Assembly: GCF_003945235.1 (NCBI RefSeq)
Contig: NZ_RSDW01000001.1
Coordinates: forward strand, 810,001 to 842,000
Length of the DNA stretch: 32,000 nt
Direction of reading: 5' to 3'
DNA from: Edaphobacter aggregans
Lineage (GTDB): Bacteria; Acidobacteriota; Terriglobia; Terriglobales; Acidobacteriaceae
The position numbers were made by a program, and so were the translations under genes. The notes under the pieces are model-generated. The model saw nothing but the letters and a program-made list of their open reading frames with translations. It was not told where the DNA came from and made no database searches. Of the stretch, positions 3,980-26,973 are shown one piece after another (within the stretch, counting starts at the first letter, position 1; every line of letters starts with the position of its first letter).

Positions 3980-4014
3980 AGACAACCGTGAAGACCCATC
4001 TCACCTTCACCACG

Positions 4015-5097: not shown

Positions 5098-5101
5098 GAA
5101 G

Positions 5102-5845
<744 letters not shown>

Positions 5846-12409: not shown

Positions 12410-14239
12410 TTACGGAATGTAGTAACGCATGCTGGTGAAGACCATGTTATTGGTCGCATTGGCACCGCCGCCAACACCGGCCCACGCCTTACGAGTCAGA
12501 TAGCTGTACTGCAACTGATACTGCAGACGGCCGTACTTAGGATTGCTGTACACCCGATACGTAAAGCCAGCCGTACCCTGCATAACGTAGCGCGTAGCAC
12601 CAAGGCAGTTCGCCGGAGTGCCCGGAGCATACGGCGCGTTGCCCGCTACGCCGATGCTGCCAAGGCCCGAGCTGGGATTACCATTCGGAGGCAGCGTCTC
12701 AGTACCGCATCCGGAGTTGTTGCTTGTCACTGGAGCATAGCCAACCAGCACTCCCTTGGAGTTCAGGTAGGTCGTGCGTTGTGCATACTCACCACCCGCA
12801 TAGCCAAAGAGGTCCAGCTTGGGTGTCGGGTGCAATTCGATCGACACCAGCGACTGGGTTCCCTTGATCGGCGCAAGCGTTCCATCCGGACGAACTGTGA
12901 CGTCAGGCAGCGTGGAGGTACCGTACCGGCCTACGCCAGTGCCCGTAAGTACGTGGAAACCGAGATCGGCATAGTGCGTAGCCGAGACGCGGGCATTGGC
13001 ATAGAATCCGCCGGCGGCCCTCGTATCGTTCGTAGCTCCGGCAGTCGTCGTCACAGCCGGGTAGTAGCGGCTGCGGAACCAACGTGCCAAACCGCCAATC
13101 TCGAAGTGGCCATACTTCGCATCGTAAGTGCCCTTCACGATCACGTCAGGCGCAACGTTGTTCGAGTAGTTCGCCGTCAGGTTGTAAAGACCGCCACCCG
13201 TGCCAGCGTTTCCGATGAAAAAATTCGTAGGTGCATTGGTCGCCGAGTAAACGAACTCCGCCTGTTCAAGCGACGCCGCCGCCGTGAAGCCGTTGTTGAA
13301 CTTCTGCTGGAACCGAATGCTTGGCTGACGCTCCCAGCTGAAACCGACGTGGTACTGAGCGTCAATCGTCATCGGCAGGTTCTCGGTCCGGTTATCCGTC
13401 GACTTCTTGGTCTCGGTTACGAGCGACCACATCTGACCACCGGTGAGGATAAAGCCACTCTTCATCGCGGCCTGACCCCAAATCTGACGCTGCCGCAACG
13501 TATAACTGTTGCTCTGGTTATCGTTGCTGGTGGCACCAGCCGAGAGGAAGTCAGCCTCGACATAGCCCGACAGCTTGAACGGTCCGGTATTGCCCTCAAA
13601 CAAGGAACCGACGCGGCTCTGACGTCCCGAGAAGTTCAACTCGCTGACATGCGCCATTCCCGCTCCATTGAAAGGAGTCGAATTGAAGGGCGTATTGACG
13701 TCGGAAGCGAGCGACCGGGTGCGGTACACCGTTTCAAACGCAAAGAAGGCAACCGGCGTGATCGTCAAGCCCTTATAACGGATGGCCAAAGGAGAGTCGA
13801 TCTTCTCGAGAATATCCTTCTTGGTGTCGCTGATCGTCTGCGCGATACCCGTAGCATTGCTCTTCAGGTCGGTGACAGTACTGTTCAGCGTGGTGACAGC
13901 CTCCGAGTTCGCCGCAACGCTGGTGCTCACACTCTCGGCCTTGGCGTTCGCTGCGGCGGCAGAAGCCTCGGCACCCTGAACAGATTGCTGCACGGTAGCC
14001 AGCTTCGCATCGCGCTCAGCAAGCTGCGTTTTCAACGCATCGATCTGGCTCTGCTGGTTCGCCATCTGCTCGCGCATCTCACGAAGTTCCTGCTGCAACG
14101 GCGTCTCGGCCGGTGCCTTCCTCGCAGCCCTCTTCGCTGTAGTCTTGGCCGGCGTAGTTGCCGTACCCGTCTGCGCCTGCATCGATACTGTACTCAACAC
14201 CAGTACCGCAGCTATAGCCGCTCGCAAATGCTTCGTCAT
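12410..14239 (-). CDS. outer-membrane beta-barrel protein (porin-like) with an N-terminal coiled-coil
   Basis: Signal peptide MTKHLRAAIAAVLVLSTVSMQAQT. There are ~100 aa of heptad-like, Ala/Gln/Glu-rich sequence (LQQELREMREQMANQQSQIDALKTQLAERDAKLATVQQ...), then ~450 aa with alternating-hydrophobic, Gly/Tyr/Asn/Thr-rich strands (GRLQYQLQYSYLTR, GFTYRVYS). I prefer the ATG at 14239 (gcGAGGAtccATG) over the track's TTG at 14251. Confidence 0.65.
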   Translation of the reverse strand: MTKHLRAAIAAVLVLSTVSMQAQTGTATTPAKTTAKRAARKAPAETPLQQELREMREQMANQQSQIDALKTQLAERDAKLATVQQSVQGAEASAAAANAKAESVSTSVAANSEAVTTLNSTVTDLKSNATGIAQTISDTKKDILEKIDSPLAIRYKGLTITPVAFFAFETVYRTRSLASDVNTPFNSTPFNGAGMAHVSELNFSGRQSRVGSLFEGNTGPFKLSGYVEADFLSAGATSNDNQSNSYTLRQRQIWGQAAMKSGFILTGGQMWSLVTETKKSTDNRTENLPMTIDAQYHVGFSWERQPSIRFQQKFNNGFTAAASLEQAEFVYSATNAPTNFFIGNAGTGGGLYNLTANYSNNVAPDVIVKGTYDAKYGHFEIGGLARWFRSRYYPAVTTTAGATNDTRAAGGFYANARVSATHYADLGFHVLTGTGVGRYGTSTLPDVTVRPDGTLAPIKGTQSLVSIELHPTPKLDLFGYAGGEYAQRTTYLNSKGVLVGYAPVTSNNSGCGTETLPPNGNPSSGLGSIGVAGNAPYAPGTPANCLGATRYVMQGTAGFTYRVYSNPKYGRLQYQLQYSYLTRKAWAGVGGGANATNNMVFTSMRYYIP

Positions 14240-14490
14240 GGATCCTCGCAAAATTAGAAAGGCAAAGGGACAGATAAGACAACAGATCGGGCTGGGTTCC
14301 CAAATCGGTTACCTTCCGTTTGCTCTTTCGCACATGCTCCCAGACTCATGTAAACAGAAAAATAATTTGCGCGATCTTCGCCTAAATCATGACTTTTTCA
14401 CATTCCTTTAACATTTCCCGGCGCCTTCGCCAAACGGAATTTGGCTCCCTATGCTCCCACGTTTCCCCTAACTCATTTACCGTTATTGAT

Positions 14491-16647
14491 ATGCAATATC
14501 CCCGCTTTGCCGCAGCCCTGCTTGCCTTCTCCACCCTGCCGTTTGGTCCGGCCATGGCCCAGCCCGGTAGCCAGTCGCTCCATTTGATCCCGGTTCCACG
14601 CGAGGTGCGACCTGCGGCAACACAATCTCTGGCTAACGGAGTACAAATCAACTGTTCGTCACCCTGCCCCACAGAGGATGTCTTCGCCATCGATGACCTG
14701 AAGACCTACCTCGCCTCGCAAAGCATCGTTGTCAACGCTACGTCACCAGTGAACATCCTGGTCACACGCTACGGCTCGACCCTCTCGAAATCGATCTACG
14801 CAGACGCAGCCGGGCTGAAATCAGCCTCTGACTCCCCTTCCGATCTCCCGCAGGAGATGAAGGCTGAGGGCTACGCCATCATCCCGGACGGTAAGGGTCT
14901 CGCTATCACCGCGGCCACCGACTCAGGCATCTTCTACGCGCTCCAGACAGTAAAGCAGATGGTGATTGGCACAGGCAGCACCGCTGTCCTCAACACCGCC
15001 TCGATTCGCGACTGGCCAGCCTTGAAGTATCGCGGCCTCGACGATGACCTCTCCCGCGGTCCAGTTCCGACGCTCGAGTTCCAAAAGAAGCAGATCCGTA
15101 CCATCGCAGCCTACAAGATCAACATCTACTCGCCCTACTTTGAGCACACAATGCAGTACACCGGGCATCCCCTGATGGCGCCTCCCGGAGGAACGTTCAC
15201 CCAGGATCAGGCGCGTGAACTGGTCGCCTACGCAACGAAGTACCACGTCACCGTCATCCCCGAGCAGGAGGCCTTCGGGCATCTCCACTACCTCCTGAAC
15301 TGGGAGCAGTACACTCCGCTGGCCGAGACGCCACACGGACATGTGCTGGCCCCAGCCCAACCCGATGCACAAAAGCTAACCCACGACATGTTCTTCGAGC
15401 TGGCCAAAATCTATCCCGGGCCATTCCTCCACCTCGGAGCCGATGAGACCGTTGAGTTGGGCAAAGGCCAGACCAAGCCACAGGTCGATGCACAGGGCCT
15501 CGGCGCGGTCTATCTCGGATTCCTGCAGCGCATCGTCTCCGATCTGAAGCCGCTCAATCGCAAGCTGCTCTTCTGGGGCGACATCGCCATGCACGATCCT
15601 GACCTGGTCAAGCAACTCCCTCCCGACTTCAAGCAGGCCACCATCGCCGTAGCATGGGAGTACAACCCACAGCCCAAGGGCTTTACGCGGTTCATTGCTC
15701 CCTTCACGGACGCAGGCATCGAGACCTGGGTCGCGCCGGGCGTCAACAACTGGTCACGCGTCTATCCCAACTTCAACAACATGTTCGCTAATGTGCAGCA
15801 GTTCACCGCGCAGGGCCAGCAGATGGGAGTAACCGGCCAGCTCAATACAGTCTGGGACGACGATGGCGAGGCCCTCTTCAACTCCAACTGGTACGGCGTG
15901 CTCTTCGGAGCCGAAGCCGCCTGGCACAAAGGCGAGGCATCCATTCCTACCTTTCAGAACAGCTACGGCGCCAACTTCCACGGAGACCTCACCGGCTCCA
16001 TCGATCTCGCCCAGCAGGAGATGATGGCAGCGCACCGGCTTCTCAAGGATTCGCCTCTTAAAGCGGATGCATCCAACCTCGTATTCTGGGTTGATCCCTG
16101 GTCTCCCGACGGCCAACGTCAGGCAGCACAAATAAGGCCCCTCCTCTCCGAACTGCGTCTACACGCCGAACGCACTCTTACCCTCATCGCCCAGGCGCGC
16201 AACGCGAACCCGAATCTCCGCGAGACCGATGCAATCGACGCTCTCGAACTAGGCGCTCGCCGCATGGACATGATCGGCTTCAAGTACCAGATCACCGACG
16301 AGATCGCAACCAGCTACGCCAATGCCTATGCGCTTCAAGGCTCGAAGAACAAAGACGACCGCATGGAAGTATCTCGCAGTCTGGGTGACATTAATGGCGT
16401 CAACGGCAAGCTGCAGGATATGCGCAATAACCTCTCCCTGTTGCGCGATCTCTACGAAGCAGCATGGCTTAAGAGCTACCGACCCTACTTTCTGCACAAC
16501 AACCTCGCACGCTTCGACCTCACGACCCAGATGTGGCTCGAGCGCGTCGACAAAGTCCGCTCGGCGCAACGACAGTGGGCGAACTCGCAGTCTATCCCGC
16601 CAGCCGCTGACCTTGGGATACCCCCACCACCAACAACAGCACATTAG
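14491..16647 (+). CDS. exported beta-N-acetylhexosaminidase, glycoside hydrolase family 20
   Basis: GH20 catalytic-domain pattern: LKYRGLDDDLSRGPVP...INIYSPYFEHT...VIPEQEAFGHLHYLL...LHLGADE...W. The start at ATG 14491 gives a signal peptide (MQYPRFAAALLAFSTLPFGPAMAQP). The track's 34-codon 5' extension has no support. Confidence 0.8.
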   Translation: MQYPRFAAALLAFSTLPFGPAMAQPGSQSLHLIPVPREVRPAATQSLANGVQINCSSPCPTEDVFAIDDLKTYLASQSIVVNATSPVNILVTRYGSTLSKSIYADAAGLKSASDSPSDLPQEMKAEGYAIIPDGKGLAITAATDSGIFYALQTVKQMVIGTGSTAVLNTASIRDWPALKYRGLDDDLSRGPVPTLEFQKKQIRTIAAYKINIYSPYFEHTMQYTGHPLMAPPGGTFTQDQARELVAYATKYHVTVIPEQEAFGHLHYLLNWEQYTPLAETPHGHVLAPAQPDAQKLTHDMFFELAKIYPGPFLHLGADETVELGKGQTKPQVDAQGLGAVYLGFLQRIVSDLKPLNRKLLFWGDIAMHDPDLVKQLPPDFKQATIAVAWEYNPQPKGFTRFIAPFTDAGIETWVAPGVNNWSRVYPNFNNMFANVQQFTAQGQQMGVTGQLNTVWDDDGEALFNSNWYGVLFGAEAAWHKGEASIPTFQNSYGANFHGDLTGSIDLAQQEMMAAHRLLKDSPLKADASNLVFWVDPWSPDGQRQAAQIRPLLSELRLHAERTLTLIAQARNANPNLRETDAIDALELGARRMDMIGFKYQITDEIATSYANAYALQGSKNKDDRMEVSRSLGDINGVNGKLQDMRNNLSLLRDLYEAAWLKSYRPYFLHNNLARFDLTTQMWLERVDKVRSAQRQWANSQSIPPAADLGIPPPPTTAH

Positions 16648-16737: not shown

Positions 16738-17871
16738 ATGATCCAGACACTAACCGCACGACGCCTCCTTACGCCGCAAGGCGCCCTCGATCATCCCGTC
16801 ATTACCATCGCTGACGGCCTGATCCAGTCAATCGAGTCCACCGCCACCAGCAGCGAAGACACGACCTTGACGCCTGCCTTTCTCGACATCCACACCCATG
16901 GTGCTGCCAATCACGACGTCATGGAAGGCACCCCTGAAGCCCTCAGCGCCATCAGCCGTTTTCTGGCCACACGTGGCGTCGGGCAGTACCTTGCAACCAC
17001 GGTCACGGCACCCGTCGACAAAACACTGCGTTCTCTCGAAGGCATAGCCAACGTCATCGAATCCCACGACCACAACGGGGCCACTCCTATTGGCATCCAT
17101 CTTGAAGGCCCCTTCATCTCGCACATCAAACGAGGCGTGCATCCGCCGGCCGACATCCTTCCGCCCTCAATCGAACTCTTTGATCGCTTTCAGCAGGCCG
17201 CCCGCGGACACATCCACCTGATGACCATCGCGCCCGAGGTTCCCGGAGCAGTCGATCTGATCGCCCACGCTGCAAAGCAAGGCGTGCGACTCAGCTTAGG
17301 CCACAGCAATGCCACCTCCGCAGAGACAAAGGCAGGCATCACCGCCGGAGCCACAACCGCCACCCACACCTTCAACGCCATGCGATCCCTCGACCACCGT
17401 GAACCCGGCATCATCGGCACTGTCCTCGACGACGATCAACTTTTCGCCGAGCTGATCTGCGACGGCATCCACGTGGCTCCCGAGTTAGTACGCCTGTGGC
17501 TTAAGGCCAAGGGAGCAGAAAAAGCCATCCTCGTCACCGACAGCATGAGCGCCACCGGCATGCCGGACGGAGACTACATGCTCGGCACCTTCCGCGTCAC
17601 CGTAGCCAACGGCCGCTGCTACCTTGCCGACGATCTATCTCGCGGCACACACACCCTGGCGGGCAGCGTCCTCACCATGGATCGCGCCGTCGCTAATCTA
17701 CAGGCATTCACAGGGATCCCCTTCGCAACAGCCATTCGCCTCGCAACCACCAACCCCGCCACCATGCTCGGACTCCATTCACCACTCGCTCCCGGCCAGC
17801 CGGCGAACTTCAATCGCTTCACTCCAGACGGCCAACTCAAATCCACGATCCTCCACGGAGTGCCCGTCTAA
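16738..17871 (+). CDS. nagA: N-acetylglucosamine-6-phosphate deacetylase
   Basis: 377 aa with amidohydrolase/NagA motifs: FLDIHTHGA, GIHLEGPFIS, LGHSNAT, THTFNAM, ELICDGIHV, LVTDSM. Confidence 0.9.
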   Translation: MIQTLTARRLLTPQGALDHPVITIADGLIQSIESTATSSEDTTLTPAFLDIHTHGAANHDVMEGTPEALSAISRFLATRGVGQYLATTVTAPVDKTLRSLEGIANVIESHDHNGATPIGIHLEGPFISHIKRGVHPPADILPPSIELFDRFQQAARGHIHLMTIAPEVPGAVDLIAHAAKQGVRLSLGHSNATSAETKAGITAGATTATHTFNAMRSLDHREPGIIGTVLDDDQLFAELICDGIHVAPELVRLWLKAKGAEKAILVTDSMSATGMPDGDYMLGTFRVTVANGRCYLADDLSRGTHTLAGSVLTMDRAVANLQAFTGIPFATAIRLATTNPATMLGLHSPLAPGQPANFNRFTPDGQLKSTILHGVPV

Positions 17872-17928: not shown

Positions 17929-19242
17929 ATGCCCTCCCCGCACACCACACAACCCTCTATAGGGATCGACTTCGGCACCACCAACAGCTCCATCGCGCTC
18001 GCCCTACCCAACGGCGAGATCGACCTGGTCCGCTTCCCCACTGCCGCCGCAACCACCGAATCCTTCCGCTCCGTCCTCTACCTCGAACAGCACAAGCAAG
18101 CCGGCCGTTCCCAGGTAAAAAGCTTCACCGGTCCCTCCGCTATCGAGCACTACCTCGAAGCCGAGCACAAGGGCCGCCTCATTCAGTCGCTCAAGTCCTA
18201 TCTCTCCAGTCGCACGCTCACCGGAACAGAAGTCTTCGGTCGCCGCTATCTCCTCGAAGACCTGATCTCGCGCATCCTCACCGACCTGCGCCTCCACGCC
18301 GAGCGGCAGTTCAACCAATCCATCCGTCACGCCACCATCGGCCGCCCCGTGCGCTTCGTCGGCGCCGACACTCCCTATGACGATGCCTTCGCTCTCGCTC
18401 GCCTCCAACAAGCCTTTCTCCACGCAGGCTTCGAATCCGTCGACTTCGAAATGGAACCCATCGCCGCTGCCTACGCCTACGAAGCCACTCTCGACCATGA
18501 CGAACTCATCCTCATCGGAGACTTCGGCGGCGGCACCAGCGACTTCTCTCTGGTAAACGTAGGCCCCGGCACGCGAACAGCATCCGCTCCCCAACGAGTC
18601 CTCGGCAACGCAGGCCTCGGACTAGCCGGCGACGCCTTCGACGCGCGCATCGTCCGCAAACTTGTCTCACCCGCCCTCGGTGCCGACTCTCTCGCGCGCT
18701 CACTCGGCAAGCTACTCCCCGCCGTTCCCGCCTGGATTTACGCGAACCTCGAGCGCTGGCACTACCTCTCCTTTCTCAAGACCCGCAACGTCAGCAACAT
18801 CCTCAAAAGCGCCCACGCCAACGCGCTCGAACCGGAAAAGATCGAAGCACTGATCACCCTCATCGACGAAGACCTTGGCTACCAGCTTCATCAGGCAGTG
18901 CAGCGGCTGAAGATCGAGCTCTCCCGCAACGAGACGGCGCAGTTCCGTTTCCGCGACGGCAGCATGAACATCCAGTCCGTAGTCACACGCGAGGAGTTCG
19001 AGTCCTGGATCACCGACGACCTCGAATCGATCGAGCACTCCGTGGACGACCTGCTCGCATCCACCAACATCCCTGCGAAACAGATCGACCGCGTCTTCCT
19101 AACCGGAGGAACCAGCTTCGTCCCCGCCGTACGCCGCATCTTCGAATCGCGCTTCACCGCAGCCCGCGTCCGCACGGGCAACGAGTTCACCTCAGTCGCG
19201 CGCGGTCTGGCCTTGCGAGACCAAGAGTCCTCGCGCCCATAA
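17929..19242 (+). CDS. Hsp70-family ATPase, short YegD-like form (nucleotide-binding domain, no canonical substrate-binding domain)
   Basis: 437 aa with the phosphate-1 motif IGIDFGTTNSSIA, the phosphate-2 motif IGDFGGGTSDFS and the C-terminal adenosine motif VFLTGGTSFVPAVR. It is too short for DnaK. Confidence 0.75.
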   Translation: MPSPHTTQPSIGIDFGTTNSSIALALPNGEIDLVRFPTAAATTESFRSVLYLEQHKQAGRSQVKSFTGPSAIEHYLEAEHKGRLIQSLKSYLSSRTLTGTEVFGRRYLLEDLISRILTDLRLHAERQFNQSIRHATIGRPVRFVGADTPYDDAFALARLQQAFLHAGFESVDFEMEPIAAAYAYEATLDHDELILIGDFGGGTSDFSLVNVGPGTRTASAPQRVLGNAGLGLAGDAFDARIVRKLVSPALGADSLARSLGKLLPAVPAWIYANLERWHYLSFLKTRNVSNILKSAHANALEPEKIEALITLIDEDLGYQLHQAVQRLKIELSRNETAQFRFRDGSMNIQSVVTREEFESWITDDLESIEHSVDDLLASTNIPAKQIDRVFLTGGTSFVPAVRRIFESRFTAARVRTGNEFTSVARGLALRDQESSRP

Positions 19243-19244
19243 CT

Positions 19245-20705
19245 TCAGTGCAGCCGATAAGCCTTGTCGCCCGTAGCCACGGGAATGTCGTCCCCGACCT
19301 TAGGTGCATCAATACTCGCCGCTCCTGCCAATCCCGTACCGGTCACATTGTTGATACTCAGCAGCGGCCCCGAGTAACCCGTCACATGAATATCTCGAAT
19401 CACCGCATGGTGCACATTCGCCAGCGAGATCCCCTTGGCGCACGTCCCACTCACATTCACCAACGAAAAACCCTCCAGCGGCTTCCTAGGATGAATGCCA
19501 GTACCCTCCACCAAACTGGGACAATCCTTCACACGAATGTTCGAAAAGCGAAAGTTTTTGATCGTAGGTATTCCCTCGTCGCCGCCAACCGGAAACTCAT
19601 CCTGAATCCCACTCGCAAGGATATTGAAGCGAAGGAAACCCCCAGTCATGCCTGAGGCGTCGAGATCATTGGCAACGATATCCTCAATGAATGCACCACG
19701 CCCAGGACGACTCTTGATGTAAATCGCGAATGTCTTCGCCCCCGTAAACTTGCAGTGCTCAATCCTCACATTGCGAATTCCCCCCGAGGTCTCACTCCCG
19801 ATGCCGATGCAAGCGAAGATTGAGTCAGCAAACGTGCAATTCGTGATCTGGATGTCCTCGCTGGTCTTCAGCAGCGAATAGGCCTCACTGCCCCGACCAG
19901 ACTTGATCGAGATGCAGTCATCGCCCGTAGCAATATCGCACCCGTCGATAACCACGCGCTTGCAAGAGTCGACGTCGATCCCATCGCCATTCCCTCCCGT
20001 GCTCCGAATCGTCAGATTACGAATAACAACGTCTTCGCAATAAGTCGGGTGCAGCGACCACATCAAATGGTAGTCAGTAGAGAAGTCCTCAAAGCGAAGA
20101 TGATTGCATCCCATCGGCTCGATCAACGCAGGATGCCGCAGCGGATTCTTTGCATTGGGCCTGCCTCCAAGCGCATAGTTGCCGCTGATCTTCCCGGGGC
20201 CAACAACACCGGTATGGTCAGCCTGCACAGCATAGATAAGCCCAACGTGGCCCGGAATCCACTTGCCTTCCCACCGCACCTGCATCACCGGATAATCCGC
20301 GAAGTCCGGCGACCCGACGATCACCGCATCCTTTTCCAGCCGAAGCAACACGTTCGACCGAAGAGCAATCGCCCCCGTAAAGTAGTTCCCTGCAGGAACG
20401 ACAACCTCGCCCCCACCAAAGACCCAGCAGCGATCAATCGCCTGCTGCAGCGCAACGGTGTCCTTGGTAGTGCCGTCTCCTACTGCTCCATAGTCACGCA
20501 CATTCAACGTAAGAGCAGGCTTGGCCACTGCGGGCTGAACCGCCTTGCGAGACTGAGCAGTCGCAGTTGCTTCAACAAGCGCCAAGGCCCCGCTCGAACA
20601 AATCGCAGGAGCCAAGAGGGCACTCTGCCCTGCCCTCTTAAGAAAGCTTCGACGAGTACTACCATCCCCGTTACCGACACGATCGATCAAGCTGGCCCCT
20701 TCCAA
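19245..20705 (-). CDS. Tat-exported glycoside hydrolase family 28 / pectin-lyase-fold protein (polygalacturonase-like)
   Basis: Twin-arginine motif TRRSFLKRAG. It has an N-terminal LNVRDYGAVGDGTTKDT box and parallel beta-helix repeats with GNGDGIDVDS and ATGDDCISIKSG (GH28 Asp boxes). The usual G-H-G box reads ACIGIGSE here. The start codon is TTG with no clear SD, so the start is uncertain. Confidence 0.75.
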   Translation of the reverse strand: MEGASLIDRVGNGDGSTRRSFLKRAGQSALLAPAICSSGALALVEATATAQSRKAVQPAVAKPALTLNVRDYGAVGDGTTKDTVALQQAIDRCWVFGGGEVVVPAGNYFTGAIALRSNVLLRLEKDAVIVGSPDFADYPVMQVRWEGKWIPGHVGLIYAVQADHTGVVGPGKISGNYALGGRPNAKNPLRHPALIEPMGCNHLRFEDFSTDYHLMWSLHPTYCEDVVIRNLTIRSTGGNGDGIDVDSCKRVVIDGCDIATGDDCISIKSGRGSEAYSLLKTSEDIQITNCTFADSIFACIGIGSETSGGIRNVRIEHCKFTGAKTFAIYIKSRPGRGAFIEDIVANDLDASGMTGGFLRFNILASGIQDEFPVGGDEGIPTIKNFRFSNIRVKDCPSLVEGTGIHPRKPLEGFSLVNVSGTCAKGISLANVHHAVIRDIHVTGYSGPLLSINNVTGTGLAGAASIDAPKVGDDIPVATGDKAYRLH

Positions 20706-20771
20706 TTGGGAAAAAGATTGGGCAGCCCAAAGCGCCGCCTCTCTATTTACGCTGTCACCGGCGCGCAGGTT

Positions 20772-21680
20772 TCATTTGCCGCCCCTCGCCCGCCATAACG
20801 CACCCTCGAGCGAATCAGCCGCCGCCTCCATCACCTTCACATTCGGAGCGGACTTCTTCAGCACCGCCACCATCGCCGCGCGCACCGGAGCGATCTGAGC
20901 AATCACGCCGCCCGTATACGCCACTTTGATCCTGTCGTCGCCCCCTGACTCCTGCATCTTCAGCGCGACAAGCGCCACCTGTTCGGCAAGTTCGGCACCG
21001 GCACGCTCTAGCACCGCAGCAGCCAGCTCATCGCCGCCCTCCGCACATCTGGCCACCAAAGGAGCCAACGCAGCAAAATCGGGACCTGGCCGCTCATTCG
21101 CCTTCTCCACAATCTCACCCAGCGACCCTACCCTCCAGAACTCACCAATCACCTTCAGCAATTCCGTAGGGACACCACGGTCCTTCGCCCAGAACCCAGC
21201 ACGCAAAGCCTCCTGGCCAATCCAGAAGCCACTTCCCTCATCTCCCAATGCCGGTCCCCAACCACCAACGTTGTATATCGTTCCATCGGCAGCGCGTCCA
21301 ACGAAGTTCGAACCCGTACCGGCGATCACGAGAATACCCGGGCCGCCTTTAAAAGCTCCATCGAGCGCAATCTCCTCGTCACCGCACAGCAGAAGTTCGC
21401 CACCCACCACATCGCTAATCTCGCGCTCGGCCCACTCTCTCACCGCCTCGATCGTGAACCCTGCAAGGCCGATGCAGGTCCTCGCAACCTCTCCCAGGCC
21501 CACGCCCGCAGCCAAAGATACCTCGGCCAGCATCGCCCGCAGCCGTGCCGAAGCCTCCGCCTCGCCCACCCGCATCAGCTTTATGCTACCCGTGACCGCG
21601 CGCCCCAGAACACGCGTCTCATCGGCCAGCGCACACGAAGTCTTAGTCCCACCTGCATCAATCGCCAAAAACAAGCTCAT
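20772..21680 (-). CDS. BadF/BadG/BcrA/BcrD-type ATPase, N-acetylglucosamine-kinase-like
   Basis: N-terminal FLAIDAGGTKTSCAL phosphate-binding motif and later LVIAGTGSN / GWGPALGDEGSGFWIG motifs, typical of this ASKHA sugar-kinase family. I prefer the ATG at 21680 to the TTG at 21731. Confidence 0.75.
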   Translation of the reverse strand: MSLFLAIDAGGTKTSCALADETRVLGRAVTGSIKLMRVGEAEASARLRAMLAEVSLAAGVGLGEVARTCIGLAGFTIEAVREWAEREISDVVGGELLLCGDEEIALDGAFKGGPGILVIAGTGSNFVGRAADGTIYNVGGWGPALGDEGSGFWIGQEALRAGFWAKDRGVPTELLKVIGEFWRVGSLGEIVEKANERPGPDFAALAPLVARCAEGGDELAAAVLERAGAELAEQVALVALKMQESGGDDRIKVAYTGGVIAQIAPVRAAMVAVLKKSAPNVKVMEAAADSLEGALWRARGGK

Positions 21681-21817
21681 ATCCAAGCCATCATAAAGGC
21701 TCGGTGCCGCTTCTGGCCTATTCTCGTCCAACTACAGGAGTAAAAAATCGACCCACCGCCGGCACTCTCGAAAACCTCCTCCTCAAAAATCTGCTCCACC
21801 GCTATAAACTCGCTTTC

Positions 21818-24800
21818 ATGCCCCAAGCAGTACTTCCGACACGCCTGCATACGGTCGATCTTGCCCTCATCGCCATCTACCTGATTGGGATTACCCTTTT
21901 CGGCCTCCGCTTTCGTAGCAAAGATCCCACGACCCGTTCACTGCGCAGTTACTTCCTCGCCGACCAGAAGATCCCATGGTGGGCGATCGCACTCTCCATC
22001 GTCTCGGCCGAAACCAGCACCCTCACCATCATCAGCATCCCCGGCGTGGCCTTTGCTGGCGACTTTGGCTTCCTCCAAATCGTCATCGGCTACATGATCG
22101 GACGCATCGTAGTCGCTGCGCTCTTCCTCCCCCGTTATTTCCAGGGCCAGATGCTCACCGCCTACCAACTGATCGACCAACGTTTCGGACGCAGCCTGCA
22201 CAAAGTCACCGCCGGCCTCTTCCTTCTCACCCGAGCCGCAGCCGAAGGCGTTCGCGTCTTCGCCGTCAGCATCGTCGTCGGCATCGCCATCGGCACCGGA
22301 GACATCCTGTCCATCGGCATCATCTCCGCCCTCACGCTGCTCTATACCTTCGAAGGTGGCATGGCAGCCGTCATCTGGACCGACGTCGTTCAGATGGCCA
22401 TCTACATCGGCGGCACCATCGTCGCCATCTCAACATTGGGCAGCCACATCCCAGGCGGATGGTCGCAGATCCACCAGATCGCCGGAGCCGCGGACAAATT
22501 CCGCATCTTCCACTTCGCCCTCAACCTCACCCAGAACTACACCTTCTGGGCTGGCGTCCTCGGCGGAACCTTTCTCACTATGGCCTCACACGGCACCGAT
22601 CAGCTCATGGTCCAGCGTATGCTCGCCGCCCGCAACCTTCGCGAATCCCGCCTCGCACTCCTCTCGAGCGGAGTCGTCATCTTCCTTCAATTCACTCTCT
22701 TCCTGCTCATCGGGGCGGGCCTCTATGTCTTCTACGGAATGCATCCCACAACCTTCCGTACCAACGACTACATCTTTCCCACCTTCATCGTTCACGAGAT
22801 GCCCATCGGCATCGCCGGCCTTCTCATCGCCGCCATCCTCGCCGCAGCCATGTCGAACCTCAGCGCCGCACTCAACTCCCTCTCTTCGACAACGGTTGTA
22901 GACTTCTACATGCACTGGCGCCCCCAGGCCAATGACCGCGAACGCATGATGATATCCCGCTCCTCCACCGTATTGTGGGCACTCGTCCTCTTCGCCGTCG
23001 CCGTCTACAGCGTCTTCGTCGGAGGCAAAGGACACGTCGTCGAAGTCGGTCTATCCATCGCTTCCGTAGCCTACGGAGCCCTGCTCGGCGTCTTCCTCCT
23101 CGGCACGCTCACACGCTACGCAACTCAAACAGGAGCCATCCTGGGCATGATCTGCGGCTTCACCCTTAACGTTGCATTATGGCAATTTCCAGGCCGCATC
23201 TTGTTTAGCGGAATCACAAACACTAAAGGAATCAGACCAGACGGCACGATTTTTCAGAGCTACCTCATACCGCCGATCACCATCCCCCACATAGCCTTCA
23301 CTTGGTACGTACTCATCGGAGCCATCGTGACCTTCGCCATCGGCAGCGTCGCCAGTGTTCTGCTCCCCACCAAGCCTCGCGCCAAAGCCATTGCCGCCGC
23401 CCTGATCCTGTTACTCGCGGCGAATCAACTCGTCGCTCCCGTTACAACATCGGCGCAAACAGTTCAGACCCAACCCTCAGCCACACCCGACTTCACCCCC
23501 ATCACCGCTCTCATCAACCAGGCCATCGCCGCAAAAAAACTTCCCGGCGCAGTAGTCCTGATCAACCACAACGGCAAAAAAGTCTTCGAGCAGGCCTACG
23601 GGAACCGCGCCATCGAACCCACCATCGAACCCATGACCGAAGACACCATCTTCGACATGGCCTCGCTCACCAAGTGCCTCGCCACCGCCACGGCAATCAT
23701 GCAGCTCTACGAGGCAGGCAAGTTCCAATTCGACGACCCCGTCGCCAAATATCTTCCCGCCTTCGGCGCCAACGGCAAAGAAAACGTGACCATCCGCGAG
23801 CTTCTCACCCACTACTCCGGTCTACCCGAAGACGTCGACCTCAAAGACCCCTGGGGCCTCGCCGCACCCGACAAGGCCGAAGGCATCCGCCGCGCCATGA
23901 ACGCGACCCTCTACGGCCCTCCCGGCCTCACCTTCAAATACTCCGACATCAACTTCATCACCCTCGGAGCCCTCGTAGAAAAACTCAGCGGCCAGCCTCT
24001 CGATGTCTACGCGCAAAAGCACATCTTTACTCCGCTCGAAATGACCCACACCCGCTACCTGCCGATAAACGCAGCCTGCGGAGAATCAAACTTCATTCCC
24101 TTCCCGTCGCGCGAAGACTCACTGACCGCGATCCTGCACACCGGCAGAGCCGTCGACAAATTCTGTACCGCATCGTCATGGAACGCACAGGATTGGGTTC
24201 CAAACATCGCCCCCACGGCCCACGACAACGAACTCAACGCGCAGGTCAACCCTAATTACGATCGCCTCCTCCGAGGCACCGTCCACGACCCCACCACACG
24301 CCGCATGGGCGGAGTCGCCGGCCACGCGGGAGTCTTCTCCACCGCCGCCGACGTCGCCCTCTACGCCCAGGCCCTCCTCGACAAGCTCCTCCACAACACA
24401 GGCGACTTCCCCCTCAGCCAGGCCACACTCCAGCTCATGACACGCCCCGAGCAGCCGCCCACCGCCGTCAACACCGCCACCACCTTCACCCCCGACGGCC
24501 AACCCACCAAGGGTGTCGCTACCCGCGGCTTCGGCTGGGACATCAACTCCGCCTACTCCCGTCCGCGCGGCGAAATCTTTCCCATCGGAAGCTTCGGCCA
24601 CACCGGCTTCACCGGAACATCCCTCTGGATTGACCCACAGTCCAACACCTTTGTCATTCTCCTAGCCAACGCCATCCATCCACGCGGCAACCCACCTATC
24701 TCCGCCCTCCGAGGCCAGGTAGCCACCGCCGCCGCGAAAGCCCTCGACCTGGAAGGACTCTTCCATTCCAAGCCGGAAGGTAAATGCACCTGCACGCACT

Positions 24801-26125
24801 GCCCAGGCTGTCCCGGATTGTCGGTTGAATCAGACGTAGCCCCTCAATCAAACCCTGAGAGTCATTTGCTAGTTGCTTCCAATAACACCACCCTAACCGG
24901 CATAGACGTCCTCACCTCCACTCACTACACCGCCCTAGCCGAAGCCGCCCGCCGCCACAACAACCGCCTCCGCATCGCCCTCCTCACCAACCACACCGGC
25001 CTCGACTACCAGGGCCGCCGCACCATCGACCTCCTCTACACCGAAGCCCCCAAGCAAGTCTCCGGCCTCCAACTCACCACCCTCTTCTCTCCCGAGCACG
25101 GCATCTTCGGCAAGCAGGACACCACCAGCATCGCCGCCGAAACCGACCCCACCACCCACCTCCCCGTCGTCAGCCTCTACGGCCCCAAAGACTCCGACAA
25201 GCGTCCCTCCCACGGCCAGCTCAAAGACCTCGACGCCGTCCTCATCGACCTCCAGGACGCAGGCGTCCGCTTCTACACCTACGAAGCCGTCACCGGCTAC
25301 TTCCTCGAAGCCGCCGCTCAGGAGAAAGCTCTCGGCCACAACCTCGAGATCATCGTCCTCGACCGCCCCAACCCCATCGGCGGCGTGCAAGTGCAAGGCC
25401 CAGTCTCCGACGCAGGTCGCGACTCCTACACCAACTACATGCCGCTCCCCGTCCGCCACGGCCTCACCCTAGGCGAACTCGCCCGTTATATCGACGGCGA
25501 GCGCCGCCTTCCCACTCCCGGCTCTCCCAATGTGCAATCCCCGCTCAACGCCCAACTCACCGTCATCCCGCTCGAGCACTGGACACGCGACCAATACTTC
25601 GACCAGACCGGCCTCCCCTGGACGAACCCCAGCCCTAACCTCCGCAGCATCACCGCAGCCACGCTCTACCCCGGCGTCGCCCTCCTGGAGACCACCAACG
25701 TCTCCGTAGGCCGCGGCACCGACACCCCCTTCGAACATTTCGGCGCGCCCTATATCGACGCCGCCGCACTATCTGCCTACCTCACCAAACGCAACATCCC
25801 CGGCGTCGCCTTCACCCCGACCACCATCGCCGTAGCCGAGGACGCCAACCACTACCCGTACCACGGCCAGACCATCCCCGCCATTCACCTCACCGTCACC
25901 GATCGCAACGCCCTCGACTCCCCAGCCCTCGGCATCGAACTGCTCTCCGCCCTCCAGCGTCTCTACCCAAAGCAGTTCAATCTAGCCCGCGCCGACCGGC
26001 TCCTCGTCAGCGTCAACACCATGCTCGCCCTTCAGAACAACGAAGACCCCCACAAAATCGTCGCCTCCTGGGCTCCAGACCTCAACACCTTCAAAGCAAG
26101 CCGCAAGCCCTACCTCCTCTACTAA
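21818..26125 (+). CDS. tripartite fusion: sodium:solute symporter family transporter + beta-lactamase-fold serine hydrolase + DUF1343 (NamZ/YbbC-like) domain
   Basis: This is a single uninterrupted frame. The ATG at 21818 gives a typical SSS N-terminus (...VDLALIAIYLIGITLFGLRF...YFLADQKIPWWAIALSIVSAETSTLT...), whereas the track's GTG at 21704 overlaps the divergent gene's upstream region. About 13 TM helices are followed by a signal-peptide-like 14th helix (23365-23463). Next comes SxxK (SLTK, 23663-23674) and GHTGFTG (24596-24616). A Cys-rich linker follows, then DUF1343-like sequence from ~24895 (TGIDVL...LLTNHTGLD...). Confidence 0.8.
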   Translation: MPQAVLPTRLHTVDLALIAIYLIGITLFGLRFRSKDPTTRSLRSYFLADQKIPWWAIALSIVSAETSTLTIISIPGVAFAGDFGFLQIVIGYMIGRIVVAALFLPRYFQGQMLTAYQLIDQRFGRSLHKVTAGLFLLTRAAAEGVRVFAVSIVVGIAIGTGDILSIGIISALTLLYTFEGGMAAVIWTDVVQMAIYIGGTIVAISTLGSHIPGGWSQIHQIAGAADKFRIFHFALNLTQNYTFWAGVLGGTFLTMASHGTDQLMVQRMLAARNLRESRLALLSSGVVIFLQFTLFLLIGAGLYVFYGMHPTTFRTNDYIFPTFIVHEMPIGIAGLLIAAILAAAMSNLSAALNSLSSTTVVDFYMHWRPQANDRERMMISRSSTVLWALVLFAVAVYSVFVGGKGHVVEVGLSIASVAYGALLGVFLLGTLTRYATQTGAILGMICGFTLNVALWQFPGRILFSGITNTKGIRPDGTIFQSYLIPPITIPHIAFTWYVLIGAIVTFAIGSVASVLLPTKPRAKAIAAALILLLAANQLVAPVTTSAQTVQTQPSATPDFTPITALINQAIAAKKLPGAVVLINHNGKKVFEQAYGNRAIEPTIEPMTEDTIFDMASLTKCLATATAIMQLYEAGKFQFDDPVAKYLPAFGANGKENVTIRELLTHYSGLPEDVDLKDPWGLAAPDKAEGIRRAMNATLYGPPGLTFKYSDINFITLGALVEKLSGQPLDVYAQKHIFTPLEMTHTRYLPINAACGESNFIPFPSREDSLTAILHTGRAVDKFCTASSWNAQDWVPNIAPTAHDNELNAQVNPNYDRLLRGTVHDPTTRRMGGVAGHAGVFSTAADVALYAQALLDKLLHNTGDFPLSQATLQLMTRPEQPPTAVNTATTFTPDGQPTKGVATRGFGWDINSAYSRPRGEIFPIGSFGHTGFTGTSLWIDPQSNTFVILLANAIHPRGNPPISALRGQVATAAAKALDLEGLFHSKPEGKCTCTHCPGCPGLSVESDVAPQSNPESHLLVASNNTTLTGIDVLTSTHYTALAEAARRHNNRLRIALLTNHTGLDYQGRRTIDLLYTEAPKQVSGLQLTTLFSPEHGIFGKQDTTSIAAETDPTTHLPVVSLYGPKDSDKRPSHGQLKDLDAVLIDLQDAGVRFYTYEAVTGYFLEAAAQEKALGHNLEIIVLDRPNPIGGVQVQGPVSDAGRDSYTNYMPLPVRHGLTLGELARYIDGERRLPTPGSPNVQSPLNAQLTVIPLEHWTRDQYFDQTGLPWTNPSPNLRSITAATLYPGVALLETTNVSVGRGTDTPFEHFGAPYIDAAALSAYLTKRNIPGVAFTPTTIAVAEDANHYPYHGQTIPAIHLTVTDRNALDSPALGIELLSALQRLYPKQFNLARADRLLVSVNTMLALQNNEDPHKIVASWAPDLNTFKASRKPYLLY

Positions 26126-26241
26126 AGAACCGACATCGGCGATGTAAGATCGTGTGTTTTCTGCTCCCTACTGCCTATTCCCTGCTTCCCGTCCCTCAAA
26201 AGATGTATCTATTTGGCAACACCAGCAGTCACAAATTCATA

Positions 26242-26290
26242 CCCTCTACAACTTCTTTACGTCACAATAGGTAGATATATATGTAGAGGG
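26242..26290 (+). promoter_or_regulatory. 9-bp perfect inverted repeat whose 3' arm covers the phoU Shine-Dalgarno sequence
   Basis: ccctctaca (26242-26250) and tgtagaggg (26282-26290) are separated by 31 AT-rich nt. The GAGGG of the right arm lies 8 nt upstream of the phoU ATG (26299). Confidence 0.4.
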
Positions 26291-26298
26291 ACTCCCCA

Positions 26299-26973
26299 AT
26301 GCCCCGGATCAACTTCCAGCAACAACTCGTCGCACTGAAGGACAAGCTTCTTGCCATGGCCGCTCTCTCGCAGCAGGCCCTCTCCCTCGCCCTCGAAGCC
26401 TATCTCACCGGCGACATGGGCCTCTGTGACCACGTCAAAGAGATCGAAGCCGCCATCAACACCGCCGAGCGCGACGTCGACGAGATGGCCTACGATCTCC
26501 TCGCCAAAGAGCAGCCCATGGCCATCGACCTCCGCTTTATCCTCTCCGTCATCAAGATCAACGGAGACCTGGAGCGCATCGGCGACCAGGCCTCCAACAT
26601 TGCCCAGCGCGCCCAGGCCGTCGCCGGAGAACCGCAGATCTCGCTCCCCATCGACATTCCCGACATGGGCGAGAAGGTCGGAATCATGATCCGCCGCGCC
26701 GTCCAATCGCTGCTCGAAGCCGACGCCCGCCTCGCCGAATCCGTCCTCGCCATGGATGACGAGATCGACGACATGAACCGTGACGTTCAAAGCGAGCTGG
26801 TCGACGTCATGCAGCAGCATCCCACTGTCAGCAGTCAGGCCCTCAACGCGATCATCATCTCGCGCAACCTCGAGCGCGCCGCTGACCACGCCACCAACAT
26901 CGCCGAAGACGTCATCTTCTGGGTCCGAGGCTCCGACGTCCGCCACAAATTCTCACTCGCCGAAGCCGACTAA
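26299..26973 (+). CDS. phoU: phosphate signalling/transport accessory protein PhoU
   Basis: 224 aa with the duplicated PhoU repeat and characteristic E/DxxxD-type boxes (INGDLERIGDQASNIA and ISRNLERAADHATNIAEDV). No pstSCAB genes are adjacent. Confidence 0.9.
   Translation: MPRINFQQQLVALKDKLLAMAALSQQALSLALEAYLTGDMGLCDHVKEIEAAINTAERDVDEMAYDLLAKEQPMAIDLRFILSVIKINGDLERIGDQASNIAQRAQAVAGEPQISLPIDIPDMGEKVGIMIRRAVQSLLEADARLAESVLAMDDEIDDMNRDVQSELVDVMQQHPTVSSQALNAIIISRNLERAADHATNIAEDVIFWVRGSDVRHKFSLAEAD

Follow-up and report, generated by a model that had tools for sequence, protein, structure and literature searches.

A predicted transporter–hydrolase–muramidase precursor with an internal signal peptide in Edaphobacter aggregans and other Acidobacteriaceae

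A single gene of the acidobacterium Edaphobacter aggregans encodes a solute:sodium symporter (SSS) module, a beta-lactamase-fold serine hydrolase and a NamZ-type module in one uninterrupted reading frame, with a predicted signal peptide where the transporter ends and the enzymes begin. We analysed this gene in a 32,000-nucleotide stretch of the genome (the window; NCBI RefSeq assembly GCF_003945235.1, contig NZ_RSDW01000001.1, positions 810,001 to 842,000 of the forward strand), within which coordinates are counted. In our preferred reading, to which we assign a probability of roughly 0.6, the protein is a precursor of two functional units that would couple periplasmic exo-trimming of peptidoglycan glycan ends to the uptake of an amino sugar, probably N-acetylmuramic acid (MurNAc). 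What is new is that the carrier and both enzymes are encoded as a single chain that has a signal peptide in its interior; the four domain families are all known, and so is the two-enzyme module.

One reading frame with three modules

The stop-to-stop frame extends from 21704 to 26125 on the forward strand, and from the ATG at 21818 it contains 1,435 codons without a stop, up to the stop codon at 26123–26125. More than 120 full-length homologues share the N-terminal start of the protein. Judged by curated bit-score cut-offs, the product contains four Pfam domains: SSF at amino acids (aa) 45–447 (141.5 bits against a cut-off of 22.8, matching model positions 1–406 of 406), Beta-lactamase at aa 563–955 (222.7 against 27), NamZ_N at aa 1053–1278 (224.8 against 26.9) and NamZ_C at aa 1283–1435 (139.6 against 25). 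The transporter part also passes the cut-off of the NCBIfam 'sss' superfamily model TIGR00813 (215.3 bits against 184).

An earlier note, made from the DNA letters, had described a single uninterrupted frame of about 1,435 codons with three modules, and had proposed checking the three segments with profile hidden Markov models for SSF, Beta-lactamase and DUF1343-type domains. The frame and the four domains bear this description out, and every segment scores above its curated cut-off. The motifs quoted in the note were all found: SLTK at 23663–23674, GHTGFTG at 24596–24616 and TGIDVL from aa 1027 (around nucleotide 24896). Its beta-lactamase-fold hydrolase is confirmed by the Pfam score and the catalytic motifs, and its DUF1343/NamZ-like module proves to be complete, with both NamZ_N and NamZ_C. 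The count of about 13 hydrophobic helices holds for the SSS module, while hydropathy gives 14 hydrophobic segments in all, the last being the short embedded signal peptide.

A search of 5.8 billion proteins yielded more than 120 full-length clusters with the same four domains (99–100% coverage, 67–94% identity). They come from Edaphobacter, Granulicella, Terriglobus and other Acidobacteriaceae, and their database label is just 'SSS family transporter'. Aligned over 120 homologues, the domain cores are 80–97% conserved, and four stretches vary in sequence and length with the frame kept (aa 451–500, 526–560, 751–800 and 976–1025). We also surveyed the loci of related genomes, taking one genome per species. 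This gave 80 loci, essentially all from Acidobacteriaceae/Terriglobales, that span Edaphobacter, Tunturiibacter, Granulicella, Terriglobus, Bryocella, Silvibacterium and Alloacidobacterium, with Edaphobacter closest to the window (88%). The SSS part through NamZ forms a single open reading frame (ORF) in 55 of the 80 loci. Nine are genuinely split, including that of the isolate Silvibacterium bohemicum S15, and such relatives keep the SSS protein and the two-enzyme protein as separate genes. Contig ends cut five loci, and NamZ is absent from one. The survey for fused and split orthologues that the earlier note had called for thus turned up both forms. The three-way architecture is common across the Acidobacteriaceae rather than rare, and only the fusion to the transporter is clade-specific. 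At a Granulicella locus from a metagenome-assembled genome (MAG; L066, 10001–13003) the ORF comprises SSS and Beta-lactamase only and ends at about 1,028 aa; NamZ was not detected at this locus, and an unrelated gene comes next.

At the split loci, the SSS gene stops a few residues past helix 13 (e.g., ...LLPKAHRSR*), and the second gene follows without a gap or with an ATGA overlap. The product of this second gene starts with a classical N-terminal signal peptide, followed by a mature N-terminus of the fused type (MIRCIKYLSLLLIALAATFRLEG|QQTSDFAPIDRLITEAIAAKKFPGAVV). The mature start (P)DF(T/S)..IPGAVV is common to the split second genes and the fused protein. Comparison with the junctions of these nine loci shows that the fused gene originated by read-through between two translationally coupled genes, one for the SSS protein and one for a secreted two-enzyme protein. 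In a rough neighbour-joining tree the split forms are basal, one fused clade is nested among split ones, and the split form of Terriglobus albidus stands beside fused Terriglobus. This placement means that fusion or fission has occurred more than once.

An embedded signal peptide at the joint

Helix 13 is followed by PTKPRAK, a lysine/arginine (K/R) loop of six to seven residues, then by AIAAALILLLAANQLVAPV and then by TSA|QTVQTQPSATPDFTPI. A general secretory (Sec) signal peptide cut by signal peptidase I has a positive n-region, an apolar h-region of 7–15 residues and small residues at positions -3 and -1. The segment shows all of these, with KPRAK as the n-region, AIAAALILLLAA..LVAPV as the h-region and T-S-A|Q as the c-region. 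The same layout was found in 115 of 115 distinct homologues, with an uncharged run of median 15 residues (interquartile range 13–17); 113 of them have a (-3,-1) site, and the next residue is mostly Gln or Glu. The strict motif [AS]x[AG][QE] is present in 58 of the 115, against a mean of 12.7 and a maximum of 23 when these residues were shuffled 500 times, a difference that is not readable as a probability because the homologues are related. Although the segment changes quickly in other respects, it retains the small-x-small motif, filled by differing residues. It is collinear with the signal peptides at the N-termini of the second-gene products of the nine split orthologues and of the free two-enzyme proteins P0126, P0130 and P0133, and PDFT or PDFS comes after the signal peptide in fused and free forms alike.

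The signal peptides at the split loci show that the C-terminal 888 residues are exported, with the predicted signal peptide at aa 519–547 driving export. The topology of the transporter agrees with this. The SSS module is collinear with residues 9–478 of the closest solved transporter, SiaT (5NV9; E=1e-43), which has 13 transmembrane helices, a periplasmic N-terminus and a cytoplasmic C-terminus (PMC5931594). When the module is placed in the SiaT orientation, 18 K/R fall among 83 'in' residues and 8 among 132 'out' residues. Split-orthologue signal peptides, positive-inside count and SiaT topology all support the earlier expectation that the enzyme part faces the periplasm. Separate translation of the enzymes from an internal start was considered and rejected: between helix 13 and the enzyme domain there is no in-frame ATG, GTG or TTG (one GTG lies inside helix 13) and no conserved methionine, which makes separate initiation unlikely.

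It had been proposed that hydrolysis is physically coupled to uptake. Such coupling is no more than a possibility, as the joint comprises an entire signal peptide whose signal-peptidase-type site is conserved, and the enzymes may thus be cut free after export. The short h-region and the conserved c-region motif make us lean towards cleavage: judged by its motifs, the precursor is probably cut by signal peptidase I after A547. The predicted products are a transporter of 59.0 kDa (isoelectric point, pI, 9.9) and an enzyme of 96.4 kDa (pI 6.0); the uncut protein has 155.3 kDa.

A permanent tether differs from the favoured reading only on the point of cleavage, and we consider it possible yet clearly less probable. 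The signal-peptide-like segment would then stay uncleaved as a fourteenth transmembrane anchor, the enzymes would be held at the periplasmic face of their own transporter, and the released sugar would be handed to it directly. The retention of the fusion in 55 of 80 species, and its seemingly repeated origin, suggest that linkage brings some advantage over coupling in an operon. The last K/R and the putative site are a median of 24 residues apart, enough to cross a membrane, and the strict AxA-Q/E motif is missing from roughly half of the homologues. Against a tether stand the shortness of the uncharged core and the retention of small-x-small followed by Gln or Glu, well above the shuffled expectation, in a fast-evolving segment. 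The collinear signal peptides of the free orthologues are, moreover, presumably cleaved. Repeated fusion and fission would also be expected from a neutral toggling of the stop codon if cleavage restores two proteins, as a cleaved product would make loss of the stop codon nearly neutral. It is a tentative picture that in an uncleaved 155-kDa protein the fourteenth helix would poise an amidase–muramidase pair over the mouth of the SSS module, with MurNAc passing straight in. We know of no characterised secondary transporter to which periplasmic hydrolases that generate its substrate are covalently attached.

All four export signals that can be read in the window end in small-x-Ala|Gln. These are AMA|QPG in a GH20 gene (14491–14560), MQA|QTG in an ORF for a 613-aa protein (14251–14170, reverse strand), ATA|QSR in a GH28 gene (20705–20580, reverse strand), where it accompanies a twin-arginine-like (Tat-like) RRSFLK, and TSA|QTV in the fusion gene (23372–23461). 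The signals of the split orthologues likewise end in A|Q (VFA|Q, AFA|Q and SHA|Q). Such endings resemble the 'Q-rule' described for signal peptides of Bacteroidetes, here in an acidobacterium.

The two enzyme modules and their free relatives

The serine hydrolase carries the motif residues S616-L-T-K619, Y708-S-D710 and H928-T-G930. Among 93 diverse sequences, S616, K619, Y708 and G930 are invariant, and S709, D710, H928 and T932 are present in at least 90%. The best named relative is Escherichia coli YfeW, which is 29% identical over 407 columns (E=5e-39) and shares the SxxK, YSD and HTG motifs. In the murQ-murP-yfeW gene set of E. coli K-12, yfeW comes third. The relationship to YfeW, together with this place of yfeW, makes an AmiE-like amidase activity a reasonable suggestion for the module. 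An AlphaFold2 model of aa 547–1435, built on a 93-sequence alignment, has a predicted local distance difference test (pLDDT) score of 91, with only the interdomain linker and one insertion disordered.

The NamZ module matches the Protein Data Bank entries 4JJA and 4K05 (E of about 1e-47). FSPEHG is present in both, and GRGT is shared with 4JJA. In Foldseek comparisons the NamZ half of the model reached a template-modelling score of 0.89 to 4K05 and 0.84 to 4JJA (BF0371 and BF0379). E1093 and R1299 are nearly invariant in 93 sequences and align with 4JJA. The roles of Glu92, at the tip of beta-2, and of Arg279, in the C-domain, have been described for Bacillus subtilis NamZ (BsNamZ; PMC8054146). 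E1093 and R1299 are their likely equivalents, with BsNamZ numbering taken from the description in that paper, and the module would accordingly be named an exo-muramidase by family and motif.

To place the enzyme pair among other proteins, aa 236–1435 were searched against 1.84 billion representatives. The three-way fusion falls into a handful of clusters at 50% identity, and among the best 150 representatives 81 have a length of about 730–860 aa. Those checked with Pfam consist of Beta-lactamase, NamZ_N and NamZ_C, and most have an N-terminal signal peptide or lipobox. A second search, seeded with one such protein (P0138), was saturated: 8000 of 8000 scored candidates had E<=1e-30, from Gallionella, Ferrovum, Acidithiobacillus, Nitrospirae and others. 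This means that the fusion of Beta-lactamase and NamZ is common. Like the fused protein, the stand-alone two-enzyme proteins have a signal peptide and a PDF(T/S) mature N-terminus, and their module is 35–57% identical to it; unlike the fused protein, they have no transporter. A survey from 2008 already lists the combination, under the name 'DDPept-DUF1343' (PMC2605481), and our literature search found no functional study of these two-enzyme proteins. The earlier description of two normally separate enzymes is therefore right for B. subtilis and too narrow in general, as Beta-lactamase+NamZ is a common secreted protein of about 800 aa in many phyla.

One relative, P0208 (1,349 aa), is a natural fusion of GH3 (NagZ-type), Beta-lactamase and NamZ, which places the B. 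subtilis trio NagZ, AmiE and NamZ within a single chain. Further fusions join FG-GAP to Beta-lactamase and NamZ (P0177, P0187) or combine tandem NamZ with SLH or Ig-like domains (P0237, P0223). A conserved trio of genes for a CE4 polysaccharide deacetylase, a DUF4015 protein and, in last place, the free Beta-lactamase+NamZ protein, with ends that overlap or nearly abut, was seen in a proteobacterial genome, Ferrovum and a Nitrospirae MAG (L087, 5784–10376; L088, 5879–10355; L089, 5853–10418). It looks like a different, uncharacterised cell-wall-glycan operon.

Genomic neighbourhood

The features of the fusion gene and its neighbours are collected in Table 1. GH20 is the best-conserved neighbour, being found upstream in 54 of the 80 loci; NagA occurs in 30, and the kinase, divergent and directly upstream, in 29. 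A downstream PhoU gene was seen in 35 loci, the Hsp70-like gene in 13 and GH28 in two. The conserved core cluster thus consists of the secreted GH20, the SSS module and the two-enzyme module, with NagA and the MurK-like kinase often adjacent. The kinase, nagA and GH20 genes that the earlier note had read as fitting an amino-sugar role are a real context, which is conserved in part.

Table 1. Fusion gene, its modules and neighbouring genes (window coordinates; GlcNAc, N-acetylglucosamine)
Feature	Coordinates	Strand	Basis
Fusion gene, 1,435 codons + stop, 155.3 kDa precursor	21818..26125	+	uninterrupted frame, four Pfam domains
SSS (LeuT-fold) transporter, aa 1–518, 13 transmembrane helices	21818..23371	+	SSF 141.5 bits, TIGR00813 215 bits; SiaT collinearity
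Predicted embedded Sec-type signal peptide, aa 519–547: KPRAK / AIAAALILLLAANQLVAPV / TSA, predicted cut before Q548	23372..23458	+	
Variable linker, ends in PDF(T/S), the predicted start of the mature enzyme	23459..23503	+	low conservation, length variation
Beta-lactamase-fold (S12/PBP4B-YfeW-like) serine hydrolase, aa 563–955, putative MurNAc-L-Ala amidase (AmiE-like)	23504..24682	+	
Hydrolase motifs SLTK; YSD; HTG	23663–23674; 23939–23947; 24599–24607	+	
Variable Cys/Pro-rich interdomain linker, aa 976–1025	24743..24892	+	conservation 0.14–0.16, 61–68% gaps, pLDDT <50
NamZ/GH171 (ex-DUF1343) putative exo-beta-N-acetylmuramidase module, aa 1027–1435 (NamZ_N + NamZ_C)	24896..26122	+	
Candidate catalytic Glu1093 in FSPEHG; Arg1299 in SVGRGT	25094–25096; 25712–25714	+	
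BcrAD/BadFG-type sugar kinase (MurNAc/GlcNAc-kinase-like), divergent	20772..21680	-	Pfam BcrAD_BadFG 119.5 bits
Divergent intergenic region, 137 bp, presumed promoters	21681..21817	.	sequence reading
Secreted GH20 beta-N-acetylhexosaminidase, signal peptide ...AMA|QPG, true start probably near 14491	14389..16647	+	Pfam GH20, GH20b
nagA, GlcNAc-6-phosphate deacetylase	16738..17871	+	TIGR00221, 309.9 bits against cut-off 225.65
YegD-like Hsp70-family gene	17929–19239	+	
GH28 gene	19248–20705	-	
PhoU-family gene, downstream of fusion	26299–26973	+	

The best match of the kinase in the Protein Data Bank is 8ZO3, an 'N-acetylmuramic acid/N-acetylglucosamine kinase', over its full length (E=7.6e-24). 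Its start is most likely the ATG at 21680, which sets the length of the intergenic gap. A scan of 20700–26400 gave no sigma-70 consensus or promoter-like sites, sigma-70 scans being uninformative for this phylum, and terminator-like sites in the same interval were no more frequent than in shuffles.

Gene order varies among relatives. In Edaphobacter bradus the order is GH20, nagA, divergent kinase and fusion gene, with nagA directly by the kinase. In the window, the Hsp70-like and GH28 genes are inserted between nagA and the kinase; an Hsp70-like gene in this place is found only in Edaphobacter/Tunturiibacter-like loci. PhoU follows the fusion gene even where the upstream neighbours vary. In S. 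bohemicum, GH20, the SSS gene and the two-enzyme gene form a tight operon, with GH20 directly before the SSS gene. About 1.5 kb downstream of this operon, past an unannotated minus-strand ORF, lies a gene for a large outer-membrane beta-barrel (CarboxypepD_reg plus OMP_b-brl_4) that resembles TonB-dependent receptors (L084, 15379–18984, forward strand), which might serve substrate entry through the outer membrane.

The rest of the window is a utilisation region for plant- or pectin-type glycans, with GH36, GH42, GH28 and UxaC. On its reverse strand, 12413–14251 encodes the secreted 613-aa protein, which has a weak coiled-coil-type match to Pfam Fez1 below the cut-off and no NCBIfam family, and which is kept between uxaC and GH20 in 26 of the 80 loci. 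An FTR1 iron permease fused to an FtrD-like membrane iron-sulfur domain is encoded at 1411–2685 (forward strand), with genes for two MacB/FtsX-type permeases and an ABC ATPase after it at 2702–5842. The forward-strand GC skew over the window (1–32000) is -0.2 to -0.4 over forward-strand genes and near zero over the reverse-strand genes at 10.8–14.2 kb; the coding strand is markedly richer in C than in G.

Proposed function and substrate

In the preferred reading, the secreted GH20 encoded upstream would remove terminal N-acetylglucosamine (GlcNAc) from the non-reducing end in the periplasm. The serine hydrolase would take the stem peptide off MurNAc, and NamZ would release MurNAc from peptidoglycan fragments. 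The SSS module would then import the freed amino sugar, most probably MurNAc and possibly GlcNAc, the adjacent MurK-like kinase would phosphorylate it in the cytoplasm, and NagA would act on GlcNAc-6-phosphate. We infer the enzyme activities, the substrate and the transport steps of this scheme. Three points speak for MurNAc as the cargo: the carrier is fused to NamZ; Tannerella forsythia uses MurT, which is independent of the phosphotransferase system (PTS), with the BcrAD/BadFG kinase MurK (PMC5790795); and the nearest solved SSS relatives (SiaT, SMVT and SMCT1) carry carboxylated substrates, not neutral sugars. The GH3+Beta-lactamase+NamZ fusion of P0208 and the S. bohemicum operon would further support a functional link between these parts.

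Several observations weigh against this reading. A tblastn search with E. coli MurQ (E<=1e-3) found no MurQ in the window, nor, at 85 related loci, less than 10 kb from the gene, which leaves a real gap in the MurNAc catabolic route, and literature searches on acidobacterial MurQ returned nothing useful. GH20, kinase and NagA are by themselves sufficient for GlcNAc. In one relative GH20, NagA and the kinase are all missing from the vicinity, and in other phyla the two-enzyme gene occurs with the CE4 deacetylase and DUF4015 genes, not with a transporter. The best NCBIfam family of the hydrolase is PBP4B (NF002968), with 144 bits against an equivalog cut-off of 385, so the hydrolase is a relative of YfeW and not an orthologue. 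Foldseek placed the hydrolase half of the model near EstG, family VIII esterases, the R61 DD-peptidase and AmpC; its closest structures are esterases and DD-peptidases, and an amidase is not assignable from sequence or fold. NamZ paralogues yield either MurNAc or GlcNAc-MurNAc, and sequence does not predict which (bioRxiv 10.1101/2021.12.02.470905). In the SSS module, the Na2 site has a conserved S346 and an invariant N347 in the second position, where SiaT has S342/S343 (Ser-Ser/Thr), and the sialic-acid ligands T58, Q82 and R135 of SiaT are replaced by E65, a gap and A142. An AlphaFold2 model of aa 1–975 (56 sequences of 67–94% identity) had a pLDDT of 46 and a predicted template-modelling score (pTM) of 0.29 and was unusable for topology, which we drew instead from homology, charge bias and the split orthologues. 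Finally, the predicted cleavage is read from motifs.

The assignment to MurNAc or amino-sugar metabolism made in the earlier note is thus supported by the amino-sugar neighbours and weakened by the missing MurQ etherase. The same architecture could serve another substrate, with GlcNAc or another amino-sugar polymer being scavenged (chitin or fungal wall, exopolysaccharide, or teichoic-acid-like glycans), or the serine hydrolase could be an esterase or a DD/LD-peptidase and the imported solute not MurNAc. We consider this rather unlikely. Besides the lack of a nearby murQ and the esterase folds closest to the hydrolase, it would explain why GH20, NagA and a NagK-like kinase, which weakly matches NCBIfam NagK_SO3507, form a complete GlcNAc route, and it suits the plant- and pectin-type genes in the rest of the window. 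However, all characterised enzymes of the NamZ family are exo-muramidases that act on non-reducing-end MurNAc (PMC8054146; bioRxiv 10.1101/2021.12.02.470905), and YfeW, the best named relative of the hydrolase, is encoded in the MurNAc operon of E. coli. The fusion of GH3, hydrolase and NamZ mirrors NagZ/AmiE/NamZ, and the best solved relative of the kinase phosphorylates MurNAc as well as GlcNAc.

The transporter module and the integrity of the gene

The proposed uptake step requires that the SSS module is a working transporter. The module retains D189 (SiaT D182, the Na3 Asp), S346, S349 and R267 (SiaT R260, the inner-gate Arg), and R139, E143 and R146 are invariant near the replaced ligand positions E65 and A142. 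A sialic-acid transporter, prompted by the SiaT match and by a sialidase-like neighbour in one relative, was rejected: the SiaT ligands are not conserved, and the sialidase-like neighbour sits in a neighbourhood that resembles uronate catabolism.

SSS-type domains also occur in some sensor kinases, such as CbrA. Since fusions of this kind to signalling modules exist, and since N347 replaces Ser/Thr in the Na2 site, the SSS module might, in place of transport, anchor the enzymes in the membrane or act as their sensor, which we hold to be improbable. No part of the protein is better conserved than the helix cores of the module (0.94–0.98), the residues listed above are retained, the cut-off of the NCBIfam sss model is passed, and in the split orthologues the module is an ordinary stand-alone SSS protein of about 500 aa.

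Ten of the 80 loci show frameshifts or in-frame stops within collinear sequence, which may be assembly errors or pseudogenes as several are MAGs; that the fusion in the window is itself an artefact, with a missed stop, a frameshift or a chimeric assembly joining two or three separate genes, has hardly any probability left, given the same unbroken architecture in isolates and metagenomes alike (more than 120 independent protein clusters), intact genes in 55 species genomes that include complete Tunturiibacter chromosomes, a frame preserved although linker lengths vary, and true split forms that differ recognisably at the junction by a stop, a start codon and a signal peptide. The fusion gene is real, far beyond chance or assembly error.

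Comparison with known systems

In B. subtilis, NagZ, AmiE and NamZ digest peptidoglycan sequentially from the non-reducing ends (PMC8054146). Like the system proposed here, the murQ-murR-murP-amiE-nagZ-namZ operon of this species provides secreted AmiE and NamZ with an exo-N-acetylglucosaminidase, followed by uptake of monosaccharides (PMC8054146). The B. subtilis proteins are separate, uptake is by the PTS transporter MurP, NagZ belongs to GH3, and murQ lies inside the operon. In contrast, the Edaphobacter locus has an SSS module fused to AmiE-like and NamZ modules, a GH20 N-acetylglucosaminidase, a separate kinase in place of PTS phosphorylation, and no murQ near the gene.

The MurT-MurK-MurQ system of T. 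forsythia with NamZ1 and NamZ2 (PMC5790795; bioRxiv 10.1101/2021.12.02.470905) is similar in that it belongs to a Gram-negative bacterium, has periplasmic NamZ proteins with A|Q signal peptides, and pairs a non-PTS inner-membrane MurNAc transporter, MurT, with a kinase of the BcrAD/BadFG family. It differs in that its proteins are separate and murQ is adjacent, whereas here the kinase is adjacent in 29 of 80 loci and MurQ was not found by the search described above. MurT is assigned to the 'sodium symporter superfamily' in the Introduction and to the 'major facilitator superfamily' in the Discussion of the same paper (PMC5790795). In the E. coli murQ-murP-yfeW system, YfeW (PBP4B) is likewise encoded by the genes for MurNAc uptake and catabolism, as a separate protein. 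SiaT of Proteus mirabilis shares with the SSS module the 13 transmembrane helices with N-terminus out and C-terminus in, the Na3 Asp and the inner-gate Arg, and it carries an acidic N-acetyl amino sugar, like the substrate favoured here. Unlike the SSS module, it has ligands that are not conserved here, a second Na2 serine where Asn stands here, and no C-terminal extension.

Partial parallels to the joint also exist in other membrane proteins. The cytochrome b-c1 polyprotein FbcH of Bradyrhizobium is cleaved at an internal signal peptide, and the ABC importers OpuA and GlnPQ have substrate-binding domains that are fused to the membrane domain and stay tethered. A literature search on the FbcH precedent brought up nothing relevant. 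In each of these, as here, one frame encodes, in this order, a polytopic membrane protein, a segment that serves as signal or anchor, and a domain in the periplasm. The attached parts, however, are cytochrome or binding proteins and not substrate-generating hydrolases, and the carriers are not of the SSS family. In keeping with the earlier statement that no characterised protein was known to have the three-way architecture, our literature search found no paper describing it. The fusion is present in public databases and is uncharacterised, and its database label hides two-thirds of the protein.

The coexistence of split and fused forms in one family, with an export signal trapped inside a polytopic protein, makes this a tractable case of gene fusion. 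Together with the fusion of GH3, hydrolase and NamZ, the architecture provides independent genomic support that this widespread subgroup of beta-lactamase-fold proteins works with NamZ on cell-wall glycans. The fusion nominates a non-PTS route for the uptake of peptidoglycan sugars in the Acidobacteriaceae, which are abundant soil bacteria, and thereby bears on the recycling of necromass.

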